Shown here piece after piece: positions 25,051 to 37,067 of a stretch of 64,000 bases of DNA (the stretch's first letter is position 1; every line of letters starts with the position of its first letter). The position numbers and the translations under genes are program-made. The stretch lies in assembly GCF_001677475.2 (NCBI RefSeq), contig NZ_CP015229.1; one strand, 5' to 3'. Source of the stretch: Escherichia coli. Its GTDB lineage: Bacteria; Pseudomonadota; Gammaproteobacteria; Enterobacterales; Enterobacteriaceae. The notes beneath the pieces were generated by a model. The model had not been told where the DNA came from. It searched no databases and saw only the letters and a program-made list of their open reading frames with translations.

Positions 25051-25863
25051 CTAGACACTTCCGAGCCGTTGATAATACTGGTTTTCATATTCTGTCGGTG
25101 ACATCTGATCGCTGGAACCATGCCGACGCTTACTGTTATAAAACATTTCGATGTAATCAAAAATATCGCTGCGGGCTTCTTCCCGCGTTCCGTAGATCTT
25201 TTTCTTTATCCGTTCGCGTTTCAACAACTGGAAAAAGCTTTCTGCAACCGCATTATCATGGCAGTTACCGCGACGGCTCATGCTGCCCTCCAGGCCGTGT
25301 GATTTCAGGAACGACTGCCACTCATGGCTTGTGTACTGACTGCCCTGATCCGAATGAACCAGCACCTGTTTTTGGGGATTACGGCGCCATACAGCCATCA
25401 GCAGTGCGTTCAGGACAATGTCCTTTGTCATCCGGGATTGCATGGACCAGCCGATAATTTTGCGTGAGAACAGATCAACAACCACGGCAAGATACAGCCA
25501 GCCTTCGTGGGTCCTGATGTAGGTTATGTCCGTTACCCAACGCTTATCCGGAGCATCCGGATTGAACTGTCGCTGGAGCCTGTTGGGCGACACGATACTG
25601 GCCTCGCCTTTACGTGCCCGCGGGCTCCGGTATCCGACCTGAGCCTTTATCCCGACACGTTTCATCAGTCGCCAGACTCTGTTCACTCCGCACTGTTGCC
25701 CGCTGTCCCGCAGATCCAGATGGATTTTGCGATAACCATAGACGCATCCCGATTCCAGCCAGAACTGTTTAATCTGCCCTGTCAGCCTCAGGTCTGCCTG
25801 ATGGCGTTGTGAATGCGGCTGCTGAAGCCAGGCGTAAAAACCACTGGGATGAACATCCAGCAC
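25051..25863 (-). CDS. IS3-family transposase OrfB (DDE catalytic domain; expressed as OrfAB fusion)
   Basis: ORF with DDE integrase-core motifs (KRWVTDITYIRT, LVHSDQGSQYTS, CHDNAVAESFF). Confidence 0.85.
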   Translation of the reverse strand: MLDVHPSGFYAWLQQPHSQRHQADLRLTGQIKQFWLESGCVYGYRKIHLDLRDSGQQCGVNRVWRLMKRVGIKAQVGYRSPRARKGEASIVSPNRLQRQFNPDAPDKRWVTDITYIRTHEGWLYLAVVVDLFSRKIIGWSMQSRMTKDIVLNALLMAVWRRNPQKQVLVHSDQGSQYTSHEWQSFLKSHGLEGSMSRRGNCHDNAVAESFFQLLKRERIKKKIYGTREEARSDIFDYIEMFYNSKRRHGSSDQMSPTEYENQYYQRLGSV

Positions 25864-25919
25864 CCGACAGAGCAGGCGAACAGGCCAGCAACAGGTGTTG
25901 TCACGGATAAAGGCGTACC

Positions 25920-26204
25920 TCAGTCGGACAGCTTTGCGAAGTACGCCGCGGCTTTTTTTAATATGTCCCGTTCGTCGGTAACCCGCTTCAGCTCTTTCTG
26001 GAGACGGCGGATCTCGGCCTGAGCATCTGACTGTTCTTTATTAGCGGAAGAATCCGGACCGTACTTCTTTATCCAGGCGTAAAGGCTGTGGGTGGTGATA
26101 TCGAGACGTGTTGCAACGCTGGCAACAGAATAACCGCGATCAACAACCTGTTTGACTGCTTCAATTTTAAACTCTTCGGGATAACGCTTACCGCTCATGG
26201 GCAC
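25920..26204 (-). CDS. IS3-family transposase OrfA (HTH)
   Basis: 94 aa ORF with HTH and leucine-zipper-like C-terminus ending at the frameshift site. Confidence 0.85.
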   Translation of the reverse strand: MPMSGKRYPEEFKIEAVKQVVDRGYSVASVATRLDITTHSLYAWIKKYGPDSSANKEQSDAQAEIRRLQKELKRVTDERDILKKAAAYFAKLSD

Positions 26205-26427
26205 CTCTCTTTAAGCCATCTTAAATGACTCTGAGGTGTCTGTTAAACCCGTGGCGATTCAAAGATCGTCCAAGAGCGCACCAAATAACAGATGGTTATA
26301 GTCGTCGAAAACATCAGTCGCCTAAGTTCACCTTAGAACTAGTGCTGTTTTGTGTCCCACCCATGCCCCACTGCCCCTTCTTTTCCTTCCTGCCCTATAC
26401 TTTCAGTCTGACTGACTGGAGGCTTCT

Positions 26428-27018
26428 ATGTGTGGACGTTTTGCACAAGCCCAAACCCGTGAAGAATACCTGGCATACCTGGCCGATGAGGCTGATCGCG
26501 ATATCGCATACGACCCGGAGCCTATTGGCCGGTACAACGTGGCGCCCGGTACCAAAGTTCTGCTCCTGAACGAACGCGACGAGCAGCTGCACCTCGATCC
26601 GGTTCTGTGGTCGTACGCGCCCGGGTGGTGGGATAAGCAGCCGCTGATTAACGCGCGCGTCGAGACGGCGGCCACTAGCCGCATGTTCAAACCTCTCTGG
26701 CAGCATGGCCGGGCGATCTGTTTTGCAGATGGGTGGTTCGAATGGAAGAAGGAAGGCGAAAAGAAACAGCCCTACTTCATTATCAACCCGGTCACTGGTA
26801 AGCCGGTCTCGGGTAATAACAAAGGCAGTATGTTGCTCATCTGGCGACCATTCCCGCGGGCAAACTGCCACTTCGCAACAGTGGAGAGGGATGAGTTGAT
26901 GACATTCGGAGCGAAACTTCTCGCCCGGTGGGAGGCCGCATATGGATTAAAGTACACCTCTGGTAATCCATGTATAATTAGATACCAGAGGAGCTTTGAA
27001 CCAAAAAAATATTATTAA
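26428..27018 (+). pseudogene. truncated divergent second copy of SRAP/yedK (only N-terminal ~115 codons are YedK-like)
   Basis: MCGRFAQAQTREEYLAYLADEADRDIAYDPEPIGRYNVAPGTKVLLL... parallels yedK to KKQPYF, then unrelated sequence; nucleotide level clearly diverged from yedK; upstream leader also yedK-like. Confidence 0.7.
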
Positions 27019-27812
27019 TTTCTATGTCTATAGGAGCCTCCAAGTCTAAATCCAAAAGTATATCTTTTAATATTATCAAACAAAAAAGCCTGCTCGTTAT
27101 TAAATATATTCAATTGAGACAGCTTTTCCATGAATGTTTTTGTCTCATCCATAAACTTCTCTGCAAATGAAGGATGTTTTAGCGCTTCAAAGAGTGTTGC
27201 GGAAAAATTTGTTTTTGCAAACATAGAGGCGCTTTGTAATTTATTTTGCCACTTAACTAAATAGTCATCACCTTCATTGTTTAATATTTCTTGGCTTGGC
27301 AGAACCAGTGCTGTTCCATGTGCTATAGCGTTCCGAAGGTGGAACATAGCAGTGAACGCATTTTTATCGGACATCATATCTTCAACCTTCAAGCCAGTAT
27401 AATCTTTAATCGCCTTTTTAAGATTATCCCAGCTCCCATTTGCTTCTAACTCTATATGCAAATTGAAAATCTTGTTATACGATCGAAAAATAGTTCTTGC
27501 GTTTTCTTTATTTGGTTCCGTTGCTGCAAGTTCCCCCATTGCATGGTGATCTTTCGATACAGCAGCGGTGAAAACCTGCCTCAAAATACCTTCAACAATC
27601 GCAGCATTCAGACTTATTAACGTGAGATTTCTGAATATGTTCTCATCTTTTAAAACTATTGTTTCTTTTGGGTTGCCATAGCGATCAAGTTGATCATAAT
27701 CCTTGTCTATTGCACCATTTTTAATCTTAATCGCAATTTCTTCGTATTGCTGAAGTAAATAAACATTAGTATTAAATATGTTAAATGAAGTTATCCTCGG
27801 AACAATTTCCAT
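27015..27812 (-). CDS. hypothetical protein with Rx4H (HEPN-type) motif; candidate abortive-infection/toxin-like RNase
   Basis: AT-rich ORF; internal ATG at 27812 (MEIVPR...) has a GAGGGG RBS, the ORF-track start at 27833 does not; motif FHLRNAIAHG fits the HEPN R-x4-6-H signature; no other domain recognised. Confidence 0.55.
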   Translation of the reverse strand: MEIVPRITSFNIFNTNVYLLQQYEEIAIKIKNGAIDKDYDQLDRYGNPKETIVLKDENIFRNLTLISLNAAIVEGILRQVFTAAVSKDHHAMGELAATEPNKENARTIFRSYNKIFNLHIELEANGSWDNLKKAIKDYTGLKVEDMMSDKNAFTAMFHLRNAIAHGTALVLPSQEILNNEGDDYLVKWQNKLQSASMFAKTNFSATLFEALKHPSFAEKFMDETKTFMEKLSQLNIFNNEQAFLFDNIKRYTFGFRLGGSYRHRN

Positions 27813-28015
27813 TGTCACACCCCTCGATTTCATTAAATCCTGATATGAGAAGCTATGGTATCAACAAATGTGAAAAAATCTAGTTAGAACCCAGAAAAAT
27901 GCTTAATAGGCCATTTAAGCAACGTCTTAATACTTATCGAATACTTGGAGATGTAGCAGAACCCCGGAGGTATTAAGCGGAGAATTCTACGCGCTATGCG
28001 TGCGACATGAGGAGG

Positions 28016-28228
28016 TTAAGCAATCATTCCGAAATGCTTCATCGCTTGCTCGATGAAAGTAACGTAATTAACAGGGCATTCATACACTTTTGAGTCAGGA
28101 GAGATACGGTTCGGCGCCTTCTTCATCTTGAACCCATGCATGTGCTTAACATGAGCGATATGGCATGTCTTAACACTGACACCATGGTTAGCTTTGACGT
28201 ATTCCTGGATCTGCTTATAGGTAGCCAT
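28016..28228 (-). CDS. small Cys/His-rich hypothetical protein (70 aa), possible partner of the HEPN-motif gene
   Basis: Start MATYKQIQEYVK preceded by AAGGAG RBS; same strand and immediately upstream of 27015..27812. Confidence 0.5.
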   Translation of the reverse strand: MATYKQIQEYVKANHGVSVKTCHIAHVKHMHGFKMKKAPNRISPDSKVYECPVNYVTFIEQAMKHFGMIA

Positions 28229-28342
28229 GCACCTCTCCTTTTTCATCACGACTCAATATACATGACAGGAAGCGCAGTGATAGCCAGTTATGTTCTAACC
28301 TGAGATTTAACCCGCGATATACTTTCTGCAACGGAGGATCCC

Positions 28343-28591
28343 ATGGCAGAAAGAAATGATAAGCCGCCTAAACCGGTTGCTGTCAGTCGGAGAATAATCA
28401 AAGGGCTTAGTCAATGCGAGCGGTGCAAGAAAACAAGGCTGGAGTGCCGCCGCATAGCGATGTCAGACGGAACAAGAATCGTCGCCTGTTTTGATTGTAT
28501 GACCGCCAAAAGCATAACTGGTAAAAAGCAAAAAAAGCTCAAAGTGTTTGAAATTTTAACCGCCTTTGAATCATCTCGACGAAAGCACTAA
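28343..28591 (+). CDS. C4 zinc-finger protein (CxxC...CxxC), putative island regulator
   Basis: 82 aa ORF with GGAGGA RBS; CERCKK...CFDC motif. Confidence 0.55.
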   Translation: MAERNDKPPKPVAVSRRIIKGLSQCERCKKTRLECRRIAMSDGTRIVACFDCMTAKSITGKKQKKLKVFEILTAFESSRRKH

Positions 28592-28640
28592 CCATCTATA
28601 GCCGCCCACTGAGGCGGTTTCTTTTTGCCTGGAGAAAACC

Positions 28641-28886
28641 ATGAGCGACATTATCAACCTGGTACCGAATAAATGGGTGACTGAGCAGAACCTGATCGCA
28701 GTCACCGGATTAAGGCCAGGAACCATTGAACGAGCCCGCCGCGAGTCATGGTTCGCCGGCCGCGAATATATGCATGTTTCACCCGATGGAAACCCAAAGC
28801 CAAACAGTGAATGCATGTACAACACAGAAGCCATTAATCACTGGATCGAACAGCAAGCATCAAAACAGCCGGGTGCTCATTCATGA
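28641..28886 (+). CDS. excisionase-like DNA-binding protein
   Basis: 81 aa ORF immediately upstream of the integrase, with RBS; the Xis-like assignment is by position and size only. Confidence 0.5.
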   Translation: MSDIINLVPNKWVTEQNLIAVTGLRPGTIERARRESWFAGREYMHVSPDGNPKPNSECMYNTEAINHWIEQQASKQPGAHS

Positions 28887-28931
28887 TGAACGGGTTATGC
28901 TTATCAGGCTCTTGGACGTCAGGAGGGGATA

Positions 28932-30233
28932 ATGGCTAAATCAGCATACCCAACAGGCGTTGAGAACCACGGAGGAACTCTCCGCATATGGTTCATCTAT
29001 AAAGGCAGCCGGGTTCGTGAAAGTCTCGGCGTGCCGGATACACCAAAAAACAGAAAGATCGCTGGCGAGCTACGCGCGTCGGTGTGCTTTTCGATTAAGA
29101 CCGGTAACTTCAATTATGCGGCCCAGTTTCCGGACTCACCTAATCTGAAAAGATTTGGCGTGGAGAGTAAGGAAATAACCGTGCTGGAACTAGCGAACAA
29201 GTGGCTTGAACTGAAGCGTATGGAGATCAGCACCAACGCGATGTCACGCTATGCATCTATAGCGCGCAACATGGTGCCCAGGATTGGTGGGGACAGGCTG
29301 GTATCTGCGGTAACGCAGGAAGATCTGCTGTTTATCAGGAAGGAATTGCTGACCGGTTATCACACGCTGAAAGTCGGGCAGAAAACGCCGGTTAAGGGCC
29401 GCTCAGTCAGAACGGTCAACAACTACATGAAGACCATGGGCGGGATGTTTAAGTTTGCCGCTGATAGCGGTTATGTACGGGTGAATCCGTTCACCGGGAT
29501 CGCCATGCTTAAGCGGTCACGATGCGAGTCTGACCCGCTGACGCGCGATGAGTTTGTCAGGTTGATTAACGCCTGCGCCCACCAGCAACTGAAAAACATG
29601 TGGTCTCTTGCCGTCTACACCGGCGTGCGCCACGGAGAACTTGTGTCGCTGGCCTGGGAAGATATCGACATGAAAGCGGGTACGATGATGATCCGCCGGA
29701 ACCACACGTTAACGAAGGAATTCACCCTTCCGAAAACAGAGGCCGGGACTGACCGTATCATCAACCTCATTCAGCCAGCGATCGACGTGCTGAAGAGCCA
29801 GGCCGAATTAACACGCCTGGGTAAGCAGTATCAGGTTGAGGTGAAACTGCGCGAGTATGGCCGAACCGATGTGCATCCGTGCACGTTCGTGTTCAACCCG
29901 CAGATCGCTTCGCGTAACAGCCGTGCCGGGCATCATTACGCAGTGGGGTCGATCAACCAGTCATGGGAGGCAGCAATGCGGCGCGCCGGGATTCGCTATC
30001 GCAGAGCATACCAGTCCCGACACACGTATGCATGCTGGTCGTTGGCTGCCGGTGCCAACCCGAACTTCATCGCGAAGCAAATGGGCCACACCGACGCGCA
30101 AATGGTTTACCGGGTGTACGGATCCTGGATGGCTGAAAATAACCAGGACCAGGTACTCATCCTCAACCAGAAATTGAGTGAGTTTGCCCCATCCATGCCC
30201 CACGCCGTGGGAACGGATGGTTATTATTTATAA
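28932..30233 (+). CDS. site-specific tyrosine recombinase (phage-type integrase), intact
   Basis: 433 aa ORF with AGGAGG RBS; C-terminal catalytic region (RHTYACW..., GHTDAQMVYRVYG). Confidence 0.9.
   Translation: MAKSAYPTGVENHGGTLRIWFIYKGSRVRESLGVPDTPKNRKIAGELRASVCFSIKTGNFNYAAQFPDSPNLKRFGVESKEITVLELANKWLELKRMEISTNAMSRYASIARNMVPRIGGDRLVSAVTQEDLLFIRKELLTGYHTLKVGQKTPVKGRSVRTVNNYMKTMGGMFKFAADSGYVRVNPFTGIAMLKRSRCESDPLTRDEFVRLINACAHQQLKNMWSLAVYTGVRHGELVSLAWEDIDMKAGTMMIRRNHTLTKEFTLPKTEAGTDRIINLIQPAIDVLKSQAELTRLGKQYQVEVKLREYGRTDVHPCTFVFNPQIASRNSRAGHHYAVGSINQSWEAAMRRAGIRYRRAYQSRHTYACWSLAAGANPNFIAKQMGHTDAQMVYRVYGSWMAENNQDQVLILNQKLSEFAPSMPHAVGTDGYYL
30165..30205. repeat. 41-bp direct repeat, right copy (within integrase 3' end)
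   Basis: Identical to 24904..24944. Confidence 0.85.
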
Positions 30234-30253
30234 ATATCATTAGGTTAGGTAAC

Positions 30254-30568
30254 CTAAACTTGCATGCCCATCACTTCCTGATACGCCGCCACCAGCTTAT
30301 TACGCACCTGAATCCCCATTTGCATAGAAACTGAGGCTTTTTGCATATCGGTCATCACATCGTTTAACGCCACGCCGGGTTCACCGAGAGTGAATTTTTC
30401 TGCCTGCGTGCGGGCGGCTGTTTGTGTATCGCTTATGCGATCGAGCGCGGCGTGCAGCTGCCCGGCAAAACTAATGGTCGGTTGCGGCAGTGATTCCTGC
30501 GCACGCGCACTCATCGCCGTAGCCTGTAACTGGCTGATAACCCCTTCAATCCCCTGTATCGCTGACAT
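30254..30568 (-). CDS. fliE: flagellar hook-basal body protein FliE
   Basis: Matches recalled FliE from [16 protein letters not shown]-terminus here is VMGMQV. Confidence 0.93.
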
Positions 30569-30782
30569 TTTCATCTCCCGGATAATTTCTGGTAGCAAAG
30601 CCTACCAGTAAGTCAATAAGACAAAGGCGCTAAATAGCAACAAAAAAACGGGTTTATTGGCGGATAAAAAAAAACGAAAGCACAAATAATGGGAGCGTCA
30701 ATTTTTCGAGTTTGCTGACCCGGGAGTGAGTCTTGTTCCACTTTGCCAATAACGCCGTCCATAATCAGCCACGAGGTGCGCG

Positions 30783-34107
<3,325 letters not shown>

Positions 34108-34108
<1 letters not shown>

Positions 34109-35481
34109 TGACCACGCGCCTGACTCGCTGGCTAACCACGCTGGATAATTTTGAAGCCAAAATGGCGCAGTTGCCTGCGGTACGTCGCTACGGGCGATTA
34201 ACTCGCGCTACCGGGCTGGTGCTGGAAGCCACCGGATTACAATTGCCGCTCGGCGCAACCTGTGTCATTGAGCGCCAGAACGGCAGCGAAACGCACGAAG
34301 TAGAAAGCGAAGTAGTCGGCTTTAACGGTCAACGGCTGTTTTTAATGCCGCTGGAGGAAGTGGAAGGTGTCCTGCCCGGCGCGCGGGTTTATGCCAAAAA
34401 CATTTCGGCTGAAGGACTGCAAAGCGGCAAGCAGTTGCCGCTCGGTCCGGCGTTATTAGGTCGTGTTCTGGACGGCAGCGGTAAACCGCTCGATGGCCTC
34501 CCCTCCCCCGATACGACGGAAACCGGTGCGCTGATTACCCCGCCATTTAACCCGTTGCAACGTACACCGATTGAACATGTGCTGGACACCGGCGTGCGCC
34601 CAATCAATGCCTTGCTTACCGTCGGACGCGGGCAGCGTATGGGGCTGTTTGCCGGGTCCGGCGTTGGTAAAAGTGTGCTGCTGGGGATGATGGCCCGTTA
34701 CACCCGTGCCGATGTCATTGTCGTGGGTTTGATTGGTGAACGTGGGCGCGAAGTAAAAGATTTTATTGAGAATATCCTCGGTGCTGAAGGGCGTGCACGC
34801 TCAGTAGTGATTGCCGCTCCGGCGGATGTTTCTCCGCTCCTGCGAATGCAGGGTGCCGCCTATGCCACGCGCATTGCCGAAGATTTTCGCGATCGTGGTC
34901 AGCATGTGTTGCTGATTATGGACTCCCTCACCCGCTACGCGATGGCCCAGCGTGAGATTGCGCTGGCGATTGGCGAACCACCCGCCACTAAAGGTTATCC
35001 ACCGTCGGTGTTTGCCAAATTACCGGCACTGGTCGAGCGTGCCGGAAATGGCATTAGCGGCGGCGGATCGATTACCGCGTTTTATACCGTGCTCACCGAA
35101 GGCGATGACCAGCAGGACCCCATTGCTGACTCCGCACGGGCAATCCTCGACGGTCATATTGTGCTGTCTCGCCGACTGGCGGAAGCCGGACACTATCCGG
35201 CTATCGATATTGAAGCGTCGATCAGCCGCGCAATGACGGCGTTGATCAGTGAGCAACATTACGCGCGAGTGCGCACCTTCAAACAGCTGTTGTCGAGTTT
35301 TCAGCGTAACCGCGATCTGGTTAGCGTCGGCGCGTATGCCAAAGGCAGCGATCCGATGCTCGATAAAGCCATCGCCCTGTGGCCGCAGCTGGAGGGATAT
35401 TTGCAACAAGGCATTTTTGAACGTGCGGACTGGGAAGCGTCTCTCCAGGGGCTGGAGCGTATTTTCCCGACAGTGTCATAA
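34108..35481 (+). CDS. fliI: flagellum-specific ATPase FliI
   Basis: 457 aa with Walker A GSGVGKS. Confidence 0.95.
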
Positions 35482-35499
35482 CCCAGGAGATAACGGCAG

Positions 35500-35943
35500 A
35501 TGGCAGAACATGGCGCGCTGGCGACCCTGAAAGATCTGGCAGAAAAAGAGGTAGAGGATGCCGCGCGCCTGCTGGGTGAAATGCGTCGCGGATGTCAGCA
35601 GGCGGAAGAACAGCTCAAAATGCTGATCGATTATCAGAATGAATATCGCAATAACCTCAACAGCGATATGAGTGCCGGGATGACCAGCAACCGCTGGATC
35701 AACTATCAGCAGTTTATCCAGACGCTGGAAAAAGCCATTACTCAGCATCGCCAGCAACTTAATCAGTGGACGCAGAAAGTTGACATTGCCCTGAACAGCT
35801 GGCGAGAAAAGAAACAACGTTTGCAGGCCTGGCAGACACTGCAGGAACGGCAATCCACGGCGGCACTGCTTGCAGAAAACCGCCTCGATCAGAAAAAGAT
35901 GGATGAGTTCGCCCAGCGCGCCGCCATGAGGAAACCTGAATGA
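35500..35943 (+). CDS. fliJ: flagellar export chaperone FliJ
   Basis: 147 aa. Confidence 0.93.
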
Positions 35944-37067
35944 TTCGCTTAGCGCCCTTGATTACCGCCGACGTTGACACCACCACATTACCTGGCGGCA
36001 AAGCCAGCGATGCTGCACAAGATTTTCTCGCGTTGTTGAGCGAAGCATTCGCAGGCGCGACAACAACCGACAAAGCGGCCCCCCAGTTGCTGGTGGCAAC
36101 TGATAAGCCCTCGGCAAAAGGCGAGCCGCTGGTCAGCGATATTCTTTCAGACGCGCAACAAGCAGATTTACTGATCCCTGTGGATGAAACACCGCCTGTC
36201 ATCAACGACGAACAATCCACATCAACACCGTTAACCACCGCTCAGACGATAACGTTGGCTGCGGCGGCTGACAACAATACGGCAAAAGACGAAAAAGCGG
36301 ATGATCTGAATGAAGACGTCACCGCCAGCCTGAGTGCCCTTTTTGCGATGTTGCCGGGTTTTGACAATACGCCCAAAGTGACTGATGCACCGTCAACCGT
36401 ATTACCGACAGAGAAACCAACGCTCTTCACAAAACTGACTTCTGCGCAACTCACAACAGCACAGCCTGATGACGCCCCCGGCACATCAGCTCAGCCATTA
36501 ACACCGCTGGTAGCAGAATCCCAGAGTAAAGCGGAAGTCATCAGCACACCTTCGCCGGTGACTGCTGCCGCCAGCCCGCTAATCACTCCACACCAGACAC
36601 AGCCACTGCCCACCGTCGCCGCGCCTGTTTTGAGTGCACCGCTGGGTTCTCACGAATGGCAACAATCATTAAGCCAGCATATTTCGCTGTTTACCCGCCA
36701 GGGGCAACAAAGCGCAGAGTTGCGTCTGCACCCGCAGGATTTAGGTGAAGTGCAAATCTCCCTCAAAGTGGATGATAACCAGGCGCAAATCCAGATGGTT
36801 TCACCGCATCAACACGTACGCGCCGCGCTGGAAGCAGCGCTTCCGGTACTGCGTACGCAGCTGGCCGAAAGTGGCATTCAGTTAGGGCAAAGCAACATCA
36901 GTGGCGAAAGCTTTAGTGGTCAACAGCAGGCAGCTTCCCAGCAACAGCAAAGCCAACGCACAGCAAACCATGAACCTCTGGCGGGGGAAGACGACGATAC
37001 GCTTCCGGTTCCCGTCTCTTTACAAGGGCGTGTAACAGGCAACAGCGGCGTTGATATTTTCGCCTAA
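35940..37067 (+). CDS. fliK: flagellar hook-length control protein FliK
   Basis: 375 aa, Pro/Thr/Ala-rich. Confidence 0.93.

Follow-up and report, generated by a model that had tools for sequence, protein, structure and literature searches.

We analyzed a 64,000-nucleotide stretch of Escherichia coli DNA (the window), in which two adjacent small open reading frames (ORFs), ORF-A and ORF-B, lie ahead of an integrase gene next to fliE, and found that these two ORFs are very likely the integrase-proximal end of the early-left (pL, or exo-xis) operon of a Cobrasixvirus-like lambdoid prophage that has been degraded at fliE. A preliminary description of the region had placed both ORFs on the plus strand, upstream of the integrase and co-directional with it, and both the ORF list and the sequence agree with that placement:

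28343-28591, plus strand: ORF-A, an 82-amino acid protein with five cysteines, a predicted zinc ribbon and a basic tail.
28641-28886, plus strand: xis (ORF-B), an 81-amino acid predicted excisionase of the DUF1233/XisR type.
28932-30233, plus strand: int, a 433-amino acid full-length tyrosine integrase with an arm-type DNA-binding domain.

ORF-A and ORF-B are both genuine genes, not chance reading frames. The good ribosome-binding sites that had been ascribed to them were found by direct reading of the sequence, with GGAGG as the Shine-Dalgarno element of ORF-A, 5 nt ahead of its ATG (context AACGGAGGATCCC-ATG), and GGAG as that of ORF-B (context CTGGAGAAAACC-ATG). We take ORF-B to be a real gene because it scores 113 bits against Pfam family PF06806, for which the cut-off is 22 (E 4.8e-33), with its residues 4-72 covering positions 1-69 of the 70 in the profile. 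We take ORF-A to be a real gene because its homologues are all 82 amino acids long and 68-94% identical, with invariant cysteines and a low ratio of nonsynonymous to synonymous substitution (dN/dS). This ratio was 0.03-0.18 for most pairs with unsaturated synonymous sites and up to 0.32 in the closest pairs, all of them pairs of other family members, as every comparison with the window copy was saturated.

The suggestion that ORF-B is Xis-like is borne out by Pfam, PHROGs, PDB and XisR matches, all of which agree. In addition to PF06806, ORF-B matches phrog_539 ("excisionase"; E 1.9e-37), the solved structure PDB 2KVV ("putative excisionase"; E 7.8e-6) and, in a BLASTP comparison, XisR of the K-12 Rac prophage (34% identity, E 3e-10); neither ORF-A nor ORF-B matched the AlpA/helix-turn-helix (HTH_17) profile (PF05930) in the Pfam scan. 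Rac XisR has been shown experimentally to bind attR and to increase Rac excision about tenfold (PMC4632033). ORF-B resembles Rac XisR (YdaQ) in its full-length match to DUF1233, in its similar size and in its place immediately upstream of a tyrosine integrase by an att site, but the att site here lies at the fliE 3' end and not at ttcA, and the integrase here has an Arm-DNA-bind_2 N terminus. ORF-B is thus classed as a DUF1233/XisR-type excisionase, which is predicted to bind att and stimulate excision. By homology to Rac XisR, and from what is generally known of lambda, it would act as a recombination directionality factor that binds the P arm beside int, bends it and makes Int recombine attL with attR.

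The position of xis and the state of int fit such a role. The xis gene is co-directional with the tyrosine integrase gene and adjoins it, at the end of the prophage beside the attR core (30251-30274). Int has two Pfam domains, PF12167 (Arm-DNA-bind_2, 87 bits) and PF00589 (Phage_integrase, 67 bits), and can be aligned over its entire length with its counterparts in the plaque-forming phage CobraSix and in intact prophages at fliE, to which it is 94-97% identical; read by eye, its residues R233, K268, R363-H364, H386 and Y396 fall in invariant columns of the integrase alignment. Both Int and Xis are predicted to be intact, and this excision module is ordinary biology. Of the combined regulatory and excision module proposed in the preliminary description, the excision part stands, with an excisionase-family gene upstream of a full-length tyrosine integrase; the regulatory part does not, since the role of ORF-A is unproven.

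The gene identities established by these comparisons extend to the rest of the island, where we found the closest phage to be Enterobacter phage vB_EclS_CobraSix (genus Cobrasixvirus). BLAST aligned CobraSix to the window in pieces: 28616-30274 (xis, int and about 40 bp past int; 88%), 26780-26941 (the 3' end of the Dam methylase gene; 81%), 26260-26383 (DNA just past attP, in the P' arm; 87%) and 24843-25032 (another copy of the int 3' end, more diverged than the first; 81%). Moreover, the fliE site of E. coli 30EVA1 is occupied by a complete 45-kb prophage whose ends are those of the window island, arranged in the order intG', P' arm, SRAP and gtr genes; tail, head, lysis, Q, nin, replication and repressor genes; gam-bet-exo, methylases and a TraR-like gene; and finally xis, int and fliE. 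The window shares with both of these the xis-int-attP module (88% DNA identity; Int 94-96%), a core that likewise overlaps the fliE 3' end, the P' arm and the Dam 3' end, and it shares with 30EVA1 the SRAP gene at the attL end. It differs in retaining only about 4 kb of the ~45-48 kb genome of this type, and in carrying a HEPN-domain gene, orf70 and ORF-A where CobraSix and 30EVA1 carry a TraR/DksA-like zinc-finger gene and a 177-amino acid gene before xis. In all, of the 4.0 kb of phage DNA, about 2.9 kb can be assigned piece by piece, and in conserved order, to segments of full-length lambdoid phages or prophages; the stretch from orf70 to ORF-A matches only one 1.1-kb metagenome contig. The flanks are E. 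coli-like, with yedK, yedL and a yedN/DUF5503 gene on the left and fliE, fliF, fliG and fliH on the right.

The ends of the island, and the DNA that separates them from the chromosome, are as follows:

24843-25002, plus strand: 3' remnant of an older integrase gene of the K-12 intG/cryptic prophage PR-G type, ending in the attL core AACCTACACCTGCATGCTCATCAC (24979-25002).
25003-25032, plus strand: first 30 nt of the P' arm of attL, matching CobraSix attP and 30EVA1 attL.
25033-26261, minus strand: IS3-family insertion sequence (IS) element, with orfA at 25920-26204 and orfB at 25051-25863.
26262-26383, plus strand: rest of the P' arm of attL, 87% identical to CobraSix beyond attP and 92.7% to the 30EVA1 attL side.
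30234-30274, plus strand: end of the P arm and the attR core AACCTAAACTTGCATGCCCATCAC, the core at 30251-30274.
30254-30598, minus strand: fliE.

We established the att junctions directly, with a five-way alignment of the K-12 intG-fliE region, both window junctions, CobraSix attP and 30EVA1 attL. The K-12 site reads intG'...AACCTACACCTGCATGCTCATCAC|TTCCTGATACGCC (fliE), while CobraSix attP reads int...AACCTAAACTTGCATGCCCATCAC|ATGAGCATACATTTT. The left junction of the window is of the K-12 type through CATCAC and then continues into the phage P' arm; the right junction is of the phage type through CATCAC and then continues into fliE. In this alignment, K-12 has the unoccupied site, with only the old intG remnant, and the two window junctions are reciprocal hybrids with a crossover at or near CATCAC. 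The attL core holds the displaced 3' end of the ancestral fliE, coding VMSMQV*, and the attR core gives fliE a new 3' end, coding VMGMQV*, such that the FliE C terminus has changed from VMSMQV to VMGMQV. The phage thus integrated via Int into the last ~20 nt of fliE, at a site that held the older intG/PR-G remnant, and brought with it a replacement fliE 3' end.

Up to CATCAC, the older remnant differs from K-12 intG-fliE at only a few positions; its identity to the CobraSix int 3' end is 80.6%, and it forms a 141-nt direct repeat (79%) with 30079-30219. K-12 PR-G (the intG pseudogene by fliE) occupies the same chromosomal site, and its remnant is retained in the window, but it represents a separate and older integration; xis and ORF-A belong to a second, younger phage that entered the att core left by the first.

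What remains between these ends points to loss of most of the prophage in one event. The key feature is a single ORF:

26428-27018, plus strand: in-frame SRAP'-'Dam fusion, with the SRAP N terminus to 26781 and the Dam 3' end from 26780.

Pfam recognizes SRAP in residues 1-120 of this fusion and Dam in residues 117-163. The SRAP half matches the left end of the 30EVA1 prophage up to 26781, and the Dam half, from 26780, matches CobraSix gp41 and the Dam 3' ends of other prophages. Since the one match stops where the other starts, we conclude that there was a single deletion of ~40 kb, whose junction at 26780/26781 is read directly. This deletion joined the SRAP gene next to attL to the 3' end of Dam, removed the genes for tail, head, lysis, Q, nin, replication, immunity and recombination, and left 4.0 kb with SRAP'-'Dam, the antisense HEPN gene, orf70, ORF-A, xis and int. 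The window has another SRAP gene, intact, at 22113-22781, which is the chromosomal yedK.

Three NCBI E. coli assemblies and a metagenome contig also carry the island, at 99.9% identity and without the IS element; one IS-free carrier is GCA_043512075.1. Thus, the deletion remnant was inherited and the IS insertion is recent. The island was carried by 0 of the 5,426 complete RefSeq E. coli genomes searched. The flank from fliE to fliJ (30250-36000) has at most 98.5% identity to any of these 5,426 genomes and 99.6-99.9% identity to draft assemblies, and the lineage of the window appears to be unrepresented among complete E. coli genomes. A metagenome contig (ENA ERZ27307724 k141_40902) carries fliE-int-xis-ORF-A-orf70-HEPN at 99.9% identity and departs inside the SRAP' fragment (window position 26506) into unrelated genes, including a GH116 glycosidase and FKBP; this breakpoint could be an assembly chimera via SRAP paralogues or a real rearrangement.

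The deletion bears on the proposal in the preliminary description that the island resembles a satellite, such as a phage-inducible chromosomal island (PICI), in which ORF-A would be an Ogr/AlpA-type regulator and ORF-B its Xis, and which a helper phage could induce, excise and mobilize. The island does have the small size of a PICI or P4-like satellite (~4 kb without the IS element), with an integrase and a small DNA-binding-type gene near att, int and xis both intact, and the same short element occurs in several E. coli assemblies. However, the SRAP'-'Dam in-frame fusion is a deletion scar that marks descent from a full phage, much of the island consists of piecewise matches to full-length phages, int is co-directional with the other genes at the end of the operon, as in lambda, and ORF-A homologues reside in prophages of 40-60 kb, not in satellites. 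Furthermore, when the seven largest ORFs were compared with Pfam, PHROGs and NCBIfam (short overlapping frames excluded), there was no match to an AlpA/Stl-type regulator, a primase or replicase, a terminase small subunit or a capsid-redirection protein, and the ORF-A family has no match to Ogr_Delta, Phage_AlpA or zf-dskA_traR at E <= 10. Satellites of this kind differ from the island, which has lambdoid operon-end gene order, deletion ancestry and, among the ORFs scanned, no satellite-type genes for regulation, replication or hijacking of packaging. As the island is made of lambdoid segments joined piecewise, with one clean deletion junction and no regulator-replication-packaging set, we reject the satellite reading, which is largely refuted and which we consider extremely improbable.

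The preliminary description had also raised the possibility that the island can still be mobilized, which we consider unlikely in this strain. The IS3-family element interrupts the P' arm of attL at a distance of 30 bp from the core. Its ends are imperfect inverted repeats of 38 nt, and it is flanked by a 3-bp target duplication, AAG, at 25030-25032 and 26262-26264, from which its insertion is directly evident; it is 99.8-100% identical to elements annotated as "IS3 family transposase" in many E. coli genomes. This element entered the P' arm after the phage DNA was in place, in this strain. In lambda, the P' arm sites of attL must be near the core. If the same holds here, the 1.2 kb of IS DNA that splits the P' arm 30 bp from the core should greatly reduce excision. 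In addition, pL, N, CII and the repressor have been lost from the island, xis and int no longer have their usual promoters, and the remnant has neither an origin nor a packaging site, which rules out its replication or packaging. We infer that excision is probably impaired in this strain.

ORF-A had been described as an 82-amino acid CxxC...CxxC protein, and the sequence indeed places cysteines at C25 and C28 (CxxC), C35, and C49 and C52 (CxxC). All five are invariant in 10 of 10 homologue clusters, as is the C terminus FE(S/T)SRR(K/R)H. These 10 clusters are the whole family among 5.8 billion proteins; a hidden Markov model search of 1.8 billion representative proteins added three remote relatives of 150-194 amino acids with the cysteine pattern in common, on contigs of ~1 kb whose context is uninformative. 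The exact ORF-A protein is present in GenBank from E. coli as a "hypothetical protein", and close relatives are found in Enterobacter hormaechei, E. kobei, Citrobacter portucalensis and Leclercia. An AlphaFold2 (AF2) model, with a moderate mean predicted local distance difference test score of 71 (~85 over residues 13-53), predicts a zinc ribbon of three strands and, behind it, a basic tail that is disordered and ends in FESSRRKH.

We compared ORF-A with known families in several ways. There was no match in Pfam, PHROGs, NCBIfam or PADLOC; 11 family members searched against Pfam at E <= 10 yielded only scattered noise; PDB searches with either ORF-A itself or the family profile yielded only chance-level matches; none of 50,697 phage genomes had a tblastn match; and Foldseek of the AF2 model against PDB and BFVD found nothing at E <= 0.001. 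The structural likeness to Xis, AlpA or Ogr-type proteins that might have been expected of both small proteins therefore holds for ORF-B, through 2KVV, but not for ORF-A, which has no sequence or predicted-fold match. Besides AlpA, ORF-A resembles none of the following in sequence or predicted fold: an Ogr/Delta late activator (PF04606; 0 of 11 family members match, even at E <= 10), a TraR/DksA C4 zinc finger of the lambda Orf73 type (PF01258; no Pfam match), Lar/RalR (no similarity in a direct comparison with Rac RalR) and a homologue of lambda Ea8.5 (no Ea8.5-type PDB chain found by sequence or profile, and an empty Foldseek result against PDB). A BLASTP match of ORF-A to the TraR-like gp35 of CobraSix has an E value of 0.023, over 30 residues only.

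In position, ORF-A does have counterparts in lambda. The lambda genes ea8.5 (PDB 2M7A, a hybrid homeodomain/zinc-finger protein) and orf55 lie between ea22 and xis in the exo-xis region, and ORF-A has a like position and resembles their products in small size and zinc-binding cysteines. The exo-xis region of lambda contains non-essential genes of poorly understood function, and Ea8.5 is a small zinc-binding protein (PMC8614690). Ea8.5 has a homeodomain part, whereas the ORF-A model is a plain three-stranded zinc ribbon with no homeodomain. Judged by these comparisons, ORF-A corresponds to Ea8.5 in position but is not its homologue.

The wider context of ORF-A is consistent with such a position. 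The DNA on either side of ORF-A contains:

28016-28249, minus strand: orf70, 70 amino acids from an ATG at 28228 (77 amino acids in the mechanical ORF), divergent from ORF-A.
28250-28342, no strand assigned: divergent intergenic region with a -10-like hexamer, TATACT (28318-28323), and the GGAGG ribosome-binding site.
28600-28628, plus strand: intrinsic terminator called by a terminator scan, with the stem GCCGCC/GGCGG followed by TTTCTTTTT.

We read 14 distinct contexts of the gene. In 13 of them, which are lambdoid or P22-like prophages of 40-60 kb, ORF-A is the last gene of the early-left operon (kil-gam-recT/erf-exo-methylase-...) and an excisionase gene begins 50-110 bp after it; in one context (L022), ORF-A is followed by an unclassified 89-amino acid ORF. 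These excisionases fall into four Pfam families (DUF1233, lambda Exc, the P22-Xis HTH_17 type and AlpA), and the start codon of xis is the exact point at which near-identical copies of ORF-A meet three different xis types. This is mosaicism at gene boundaries, which is typical of lambdoid phages. The Enterobacter hormaechei prophage at fliE (L002-L005 type) is one intact relative that carries ORF-A. In another set of loci, L023-L025 (Logan ERR5094895 and others), the ORF-A cassette follows an AlpA-type gene and has no xis downstream; an inverted DUF1233 xis lies further upstream of ORF-A, with genes for P22-type ejection proteins nearby.

The elements around ORF-A travel with it, a conservation that we observe directly. 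A TATAAT-like hexamer lies ~19 nt ahead of the ORF-A start in 12 of 12 lined-up loci (TATAAT itself in most relatives), and a G+C-rich hairpin with a T-run lies past the ORF-A stop in 13 of 13 loci folded, with four different stem sequences. In the window, this terminator folds at -13.9 kcal/mol and is followed by the conserved xis ribosome-binding site GCCTGGAGA. The divergent 70-amino acid gene lies beside ORF-A in the window and six other loci; its product is a member of phrog_27283, with 43 homologue clusters and only a weak HTH-like predicted fold. We found no lambda CII-type box (TTGC-N6-TTGC, a marker of pI-like promoters) in 28.0-29.4 kb, and counts across the window were at chance level; an Rfam scan of 24600-30700 found nothing at E <= 0.1. 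In an intact relative, the antiterminated pL transcript would pass through ORF-A and its terminator into xis and int, and the terminator would halt transcripts lacking antitermination ahead of xis and int, an insulating role that we infer from this arrangement.

This arrangement could also be read as one in which ORF-A, alone or with orf70, is a dedicated controller of site-specific recombination, either as a co-factor or inhibitor of Xis/Int or as a regulator of xis-int transcription. A dedicated controller would explain the fixed place of ORF-A ahead of any excisionase family, with an excisionase-type gene 50-110 bp downstream whichever of the four families is present and near-identical ORF-A copies joined to different xis types; moreover, the modeled zinc ribbon and basic tail would be compatible with DNA binding, and orf70 has weak HTH-like fold matches. 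However, lambdoid gene order is positional, so that the last exo-xis gene trivially adjoins xis, and a recombination-specific protein would be expected to co-vary with its Int/Xis partner, whereas one ORF-A protein is common to unrelated excisionases, which argues against a specific partnership. In addition, most prophages with the same Int and Xis at fliE lack ORF-A; CobraSix and the 30EVA1 prophage are examples, with the same Int, Xis and att site but no ORF-A, which is thus dispensable for this recombination system, and L023-L025 have ORF-A without a downstream xis. We therefore consider a dedicated controller unlikely. Also unlikely, in our judgment, is a reading in which the -10-like element, ORF-A and the terminator (often with orf70) form a portable gate for xis-int expression or excision control across lambdoid and P22-like prophages. 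If that were true, the cassette would work with at least four unrelated excisionase families, and ORF-A would be a hitherto undescribed recombination-control factor. Most likely, in our view, ORF-A encodes a non-essential accessory protein of the exo-xis region, one that would bind a nucleic acid or some protein of the host rather than take part in excision itself.

The gene on the other side of orf70 suggested one more explanation for the presence of ORF-A in the remnant:

27015-27833, minus strand: HEPN-domain gene with an RNAIAH motif, antisense to the early-left operon; probably 265 amino acids from an internal start.

Its product matches Pfam HEPN_RiboL-PSP below the cut-off (E 7e-4) and, partially, PADLOC RTasHEPN (E 3.8e-8). 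Proteins 85-88% identical to it adjoin Dam in lambdoid prophages of Klebsiella aerogenes and Citrobacter, in which the 'Dam + HEPN module has 82% DNA identity to the window. The HEPN gene is a candidate prophage-borne defense or abortive-infection gene, and may be the reason that the remnant is retained. If ORF-A and orf70 formed a defense or toxin-antitoxin cassette with this gene, the remnant would be kept for the benefit of the host, as might be suggested by the Rx4H motif of the HEPN protein, its partial match to a defense-associated HEPN model, the adjacency of the three genes and the 99.9% conservation of the remnant in several isolates. We judge this very unlikely, because ORF-A is found without the HEPN gene in every other context examined, the HEPN gene is found without ORF-A in the Klebsiella and Citrobacter prophages, and neither ORF-A nor orf70 has a PADLOC match. 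A three-gene HEPN system that includes ORF-A was dropped on the grounds that the genes occur independently of one another.

Outside the island, the yedN-type gene at 23513-24631 (minus strand) encodes DUF5503 and leucine-rich repeats in an intact 372-amino acid ORF; its counterpart is a pseudogene in K-12 and is annotated as the type III secretion system effector EspR3 in an O55:H7 genome.

Several points weigh against parts of our interpretation of the two genes as the operon end of a degraded prophage that is probably impaired in excision. First, the loss of excision due to the IS element is argued from lambda attL, and copies of the island without the IS may still excise. Second, the 11-mer CCATGCCCCAC, which occurs exactly three times in the window, at 24932-24942 (old P arm), 26361-26371 (P' arm) and 30193-30203 (P arm), is a candidate arm-type integrase site, but it is not consistently present in CobraSix or at 30EVA1 attR and is a lead only. 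Third, the -10-like hexamer of ORF-A has no recognizable -35 element, and a consensus promoter scan called nothing there; likewise, the fold z-score of the ORF-A terminator alone is just -1.5. Finally, the role given to ORF-A is a prediction, and its strict adjacency to four excisionase families could mean that there is a functional link to excision that we have discounted.

For annotation, these results mean that the region is a defective lambdoid prophage at the fliE 3' end, the second occupant of the K-12 intG/PR-G site, and not a satellite, and that ORF-B should be named an XisR-type excisionase. Both the att site, which overlaps the last codons of fliE, and the deletion scar are now defined to the base. 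The current view of prophage biology is unchanged, as this is ordinary biology in which the orphan ORF-A family is a minor curiosity. ORF-A represents a very small family, restricted to Enterobacteriaceae and everywhere called a "hypothetical protein", that adds to the little-understood accessory genes of the exo-xis region.

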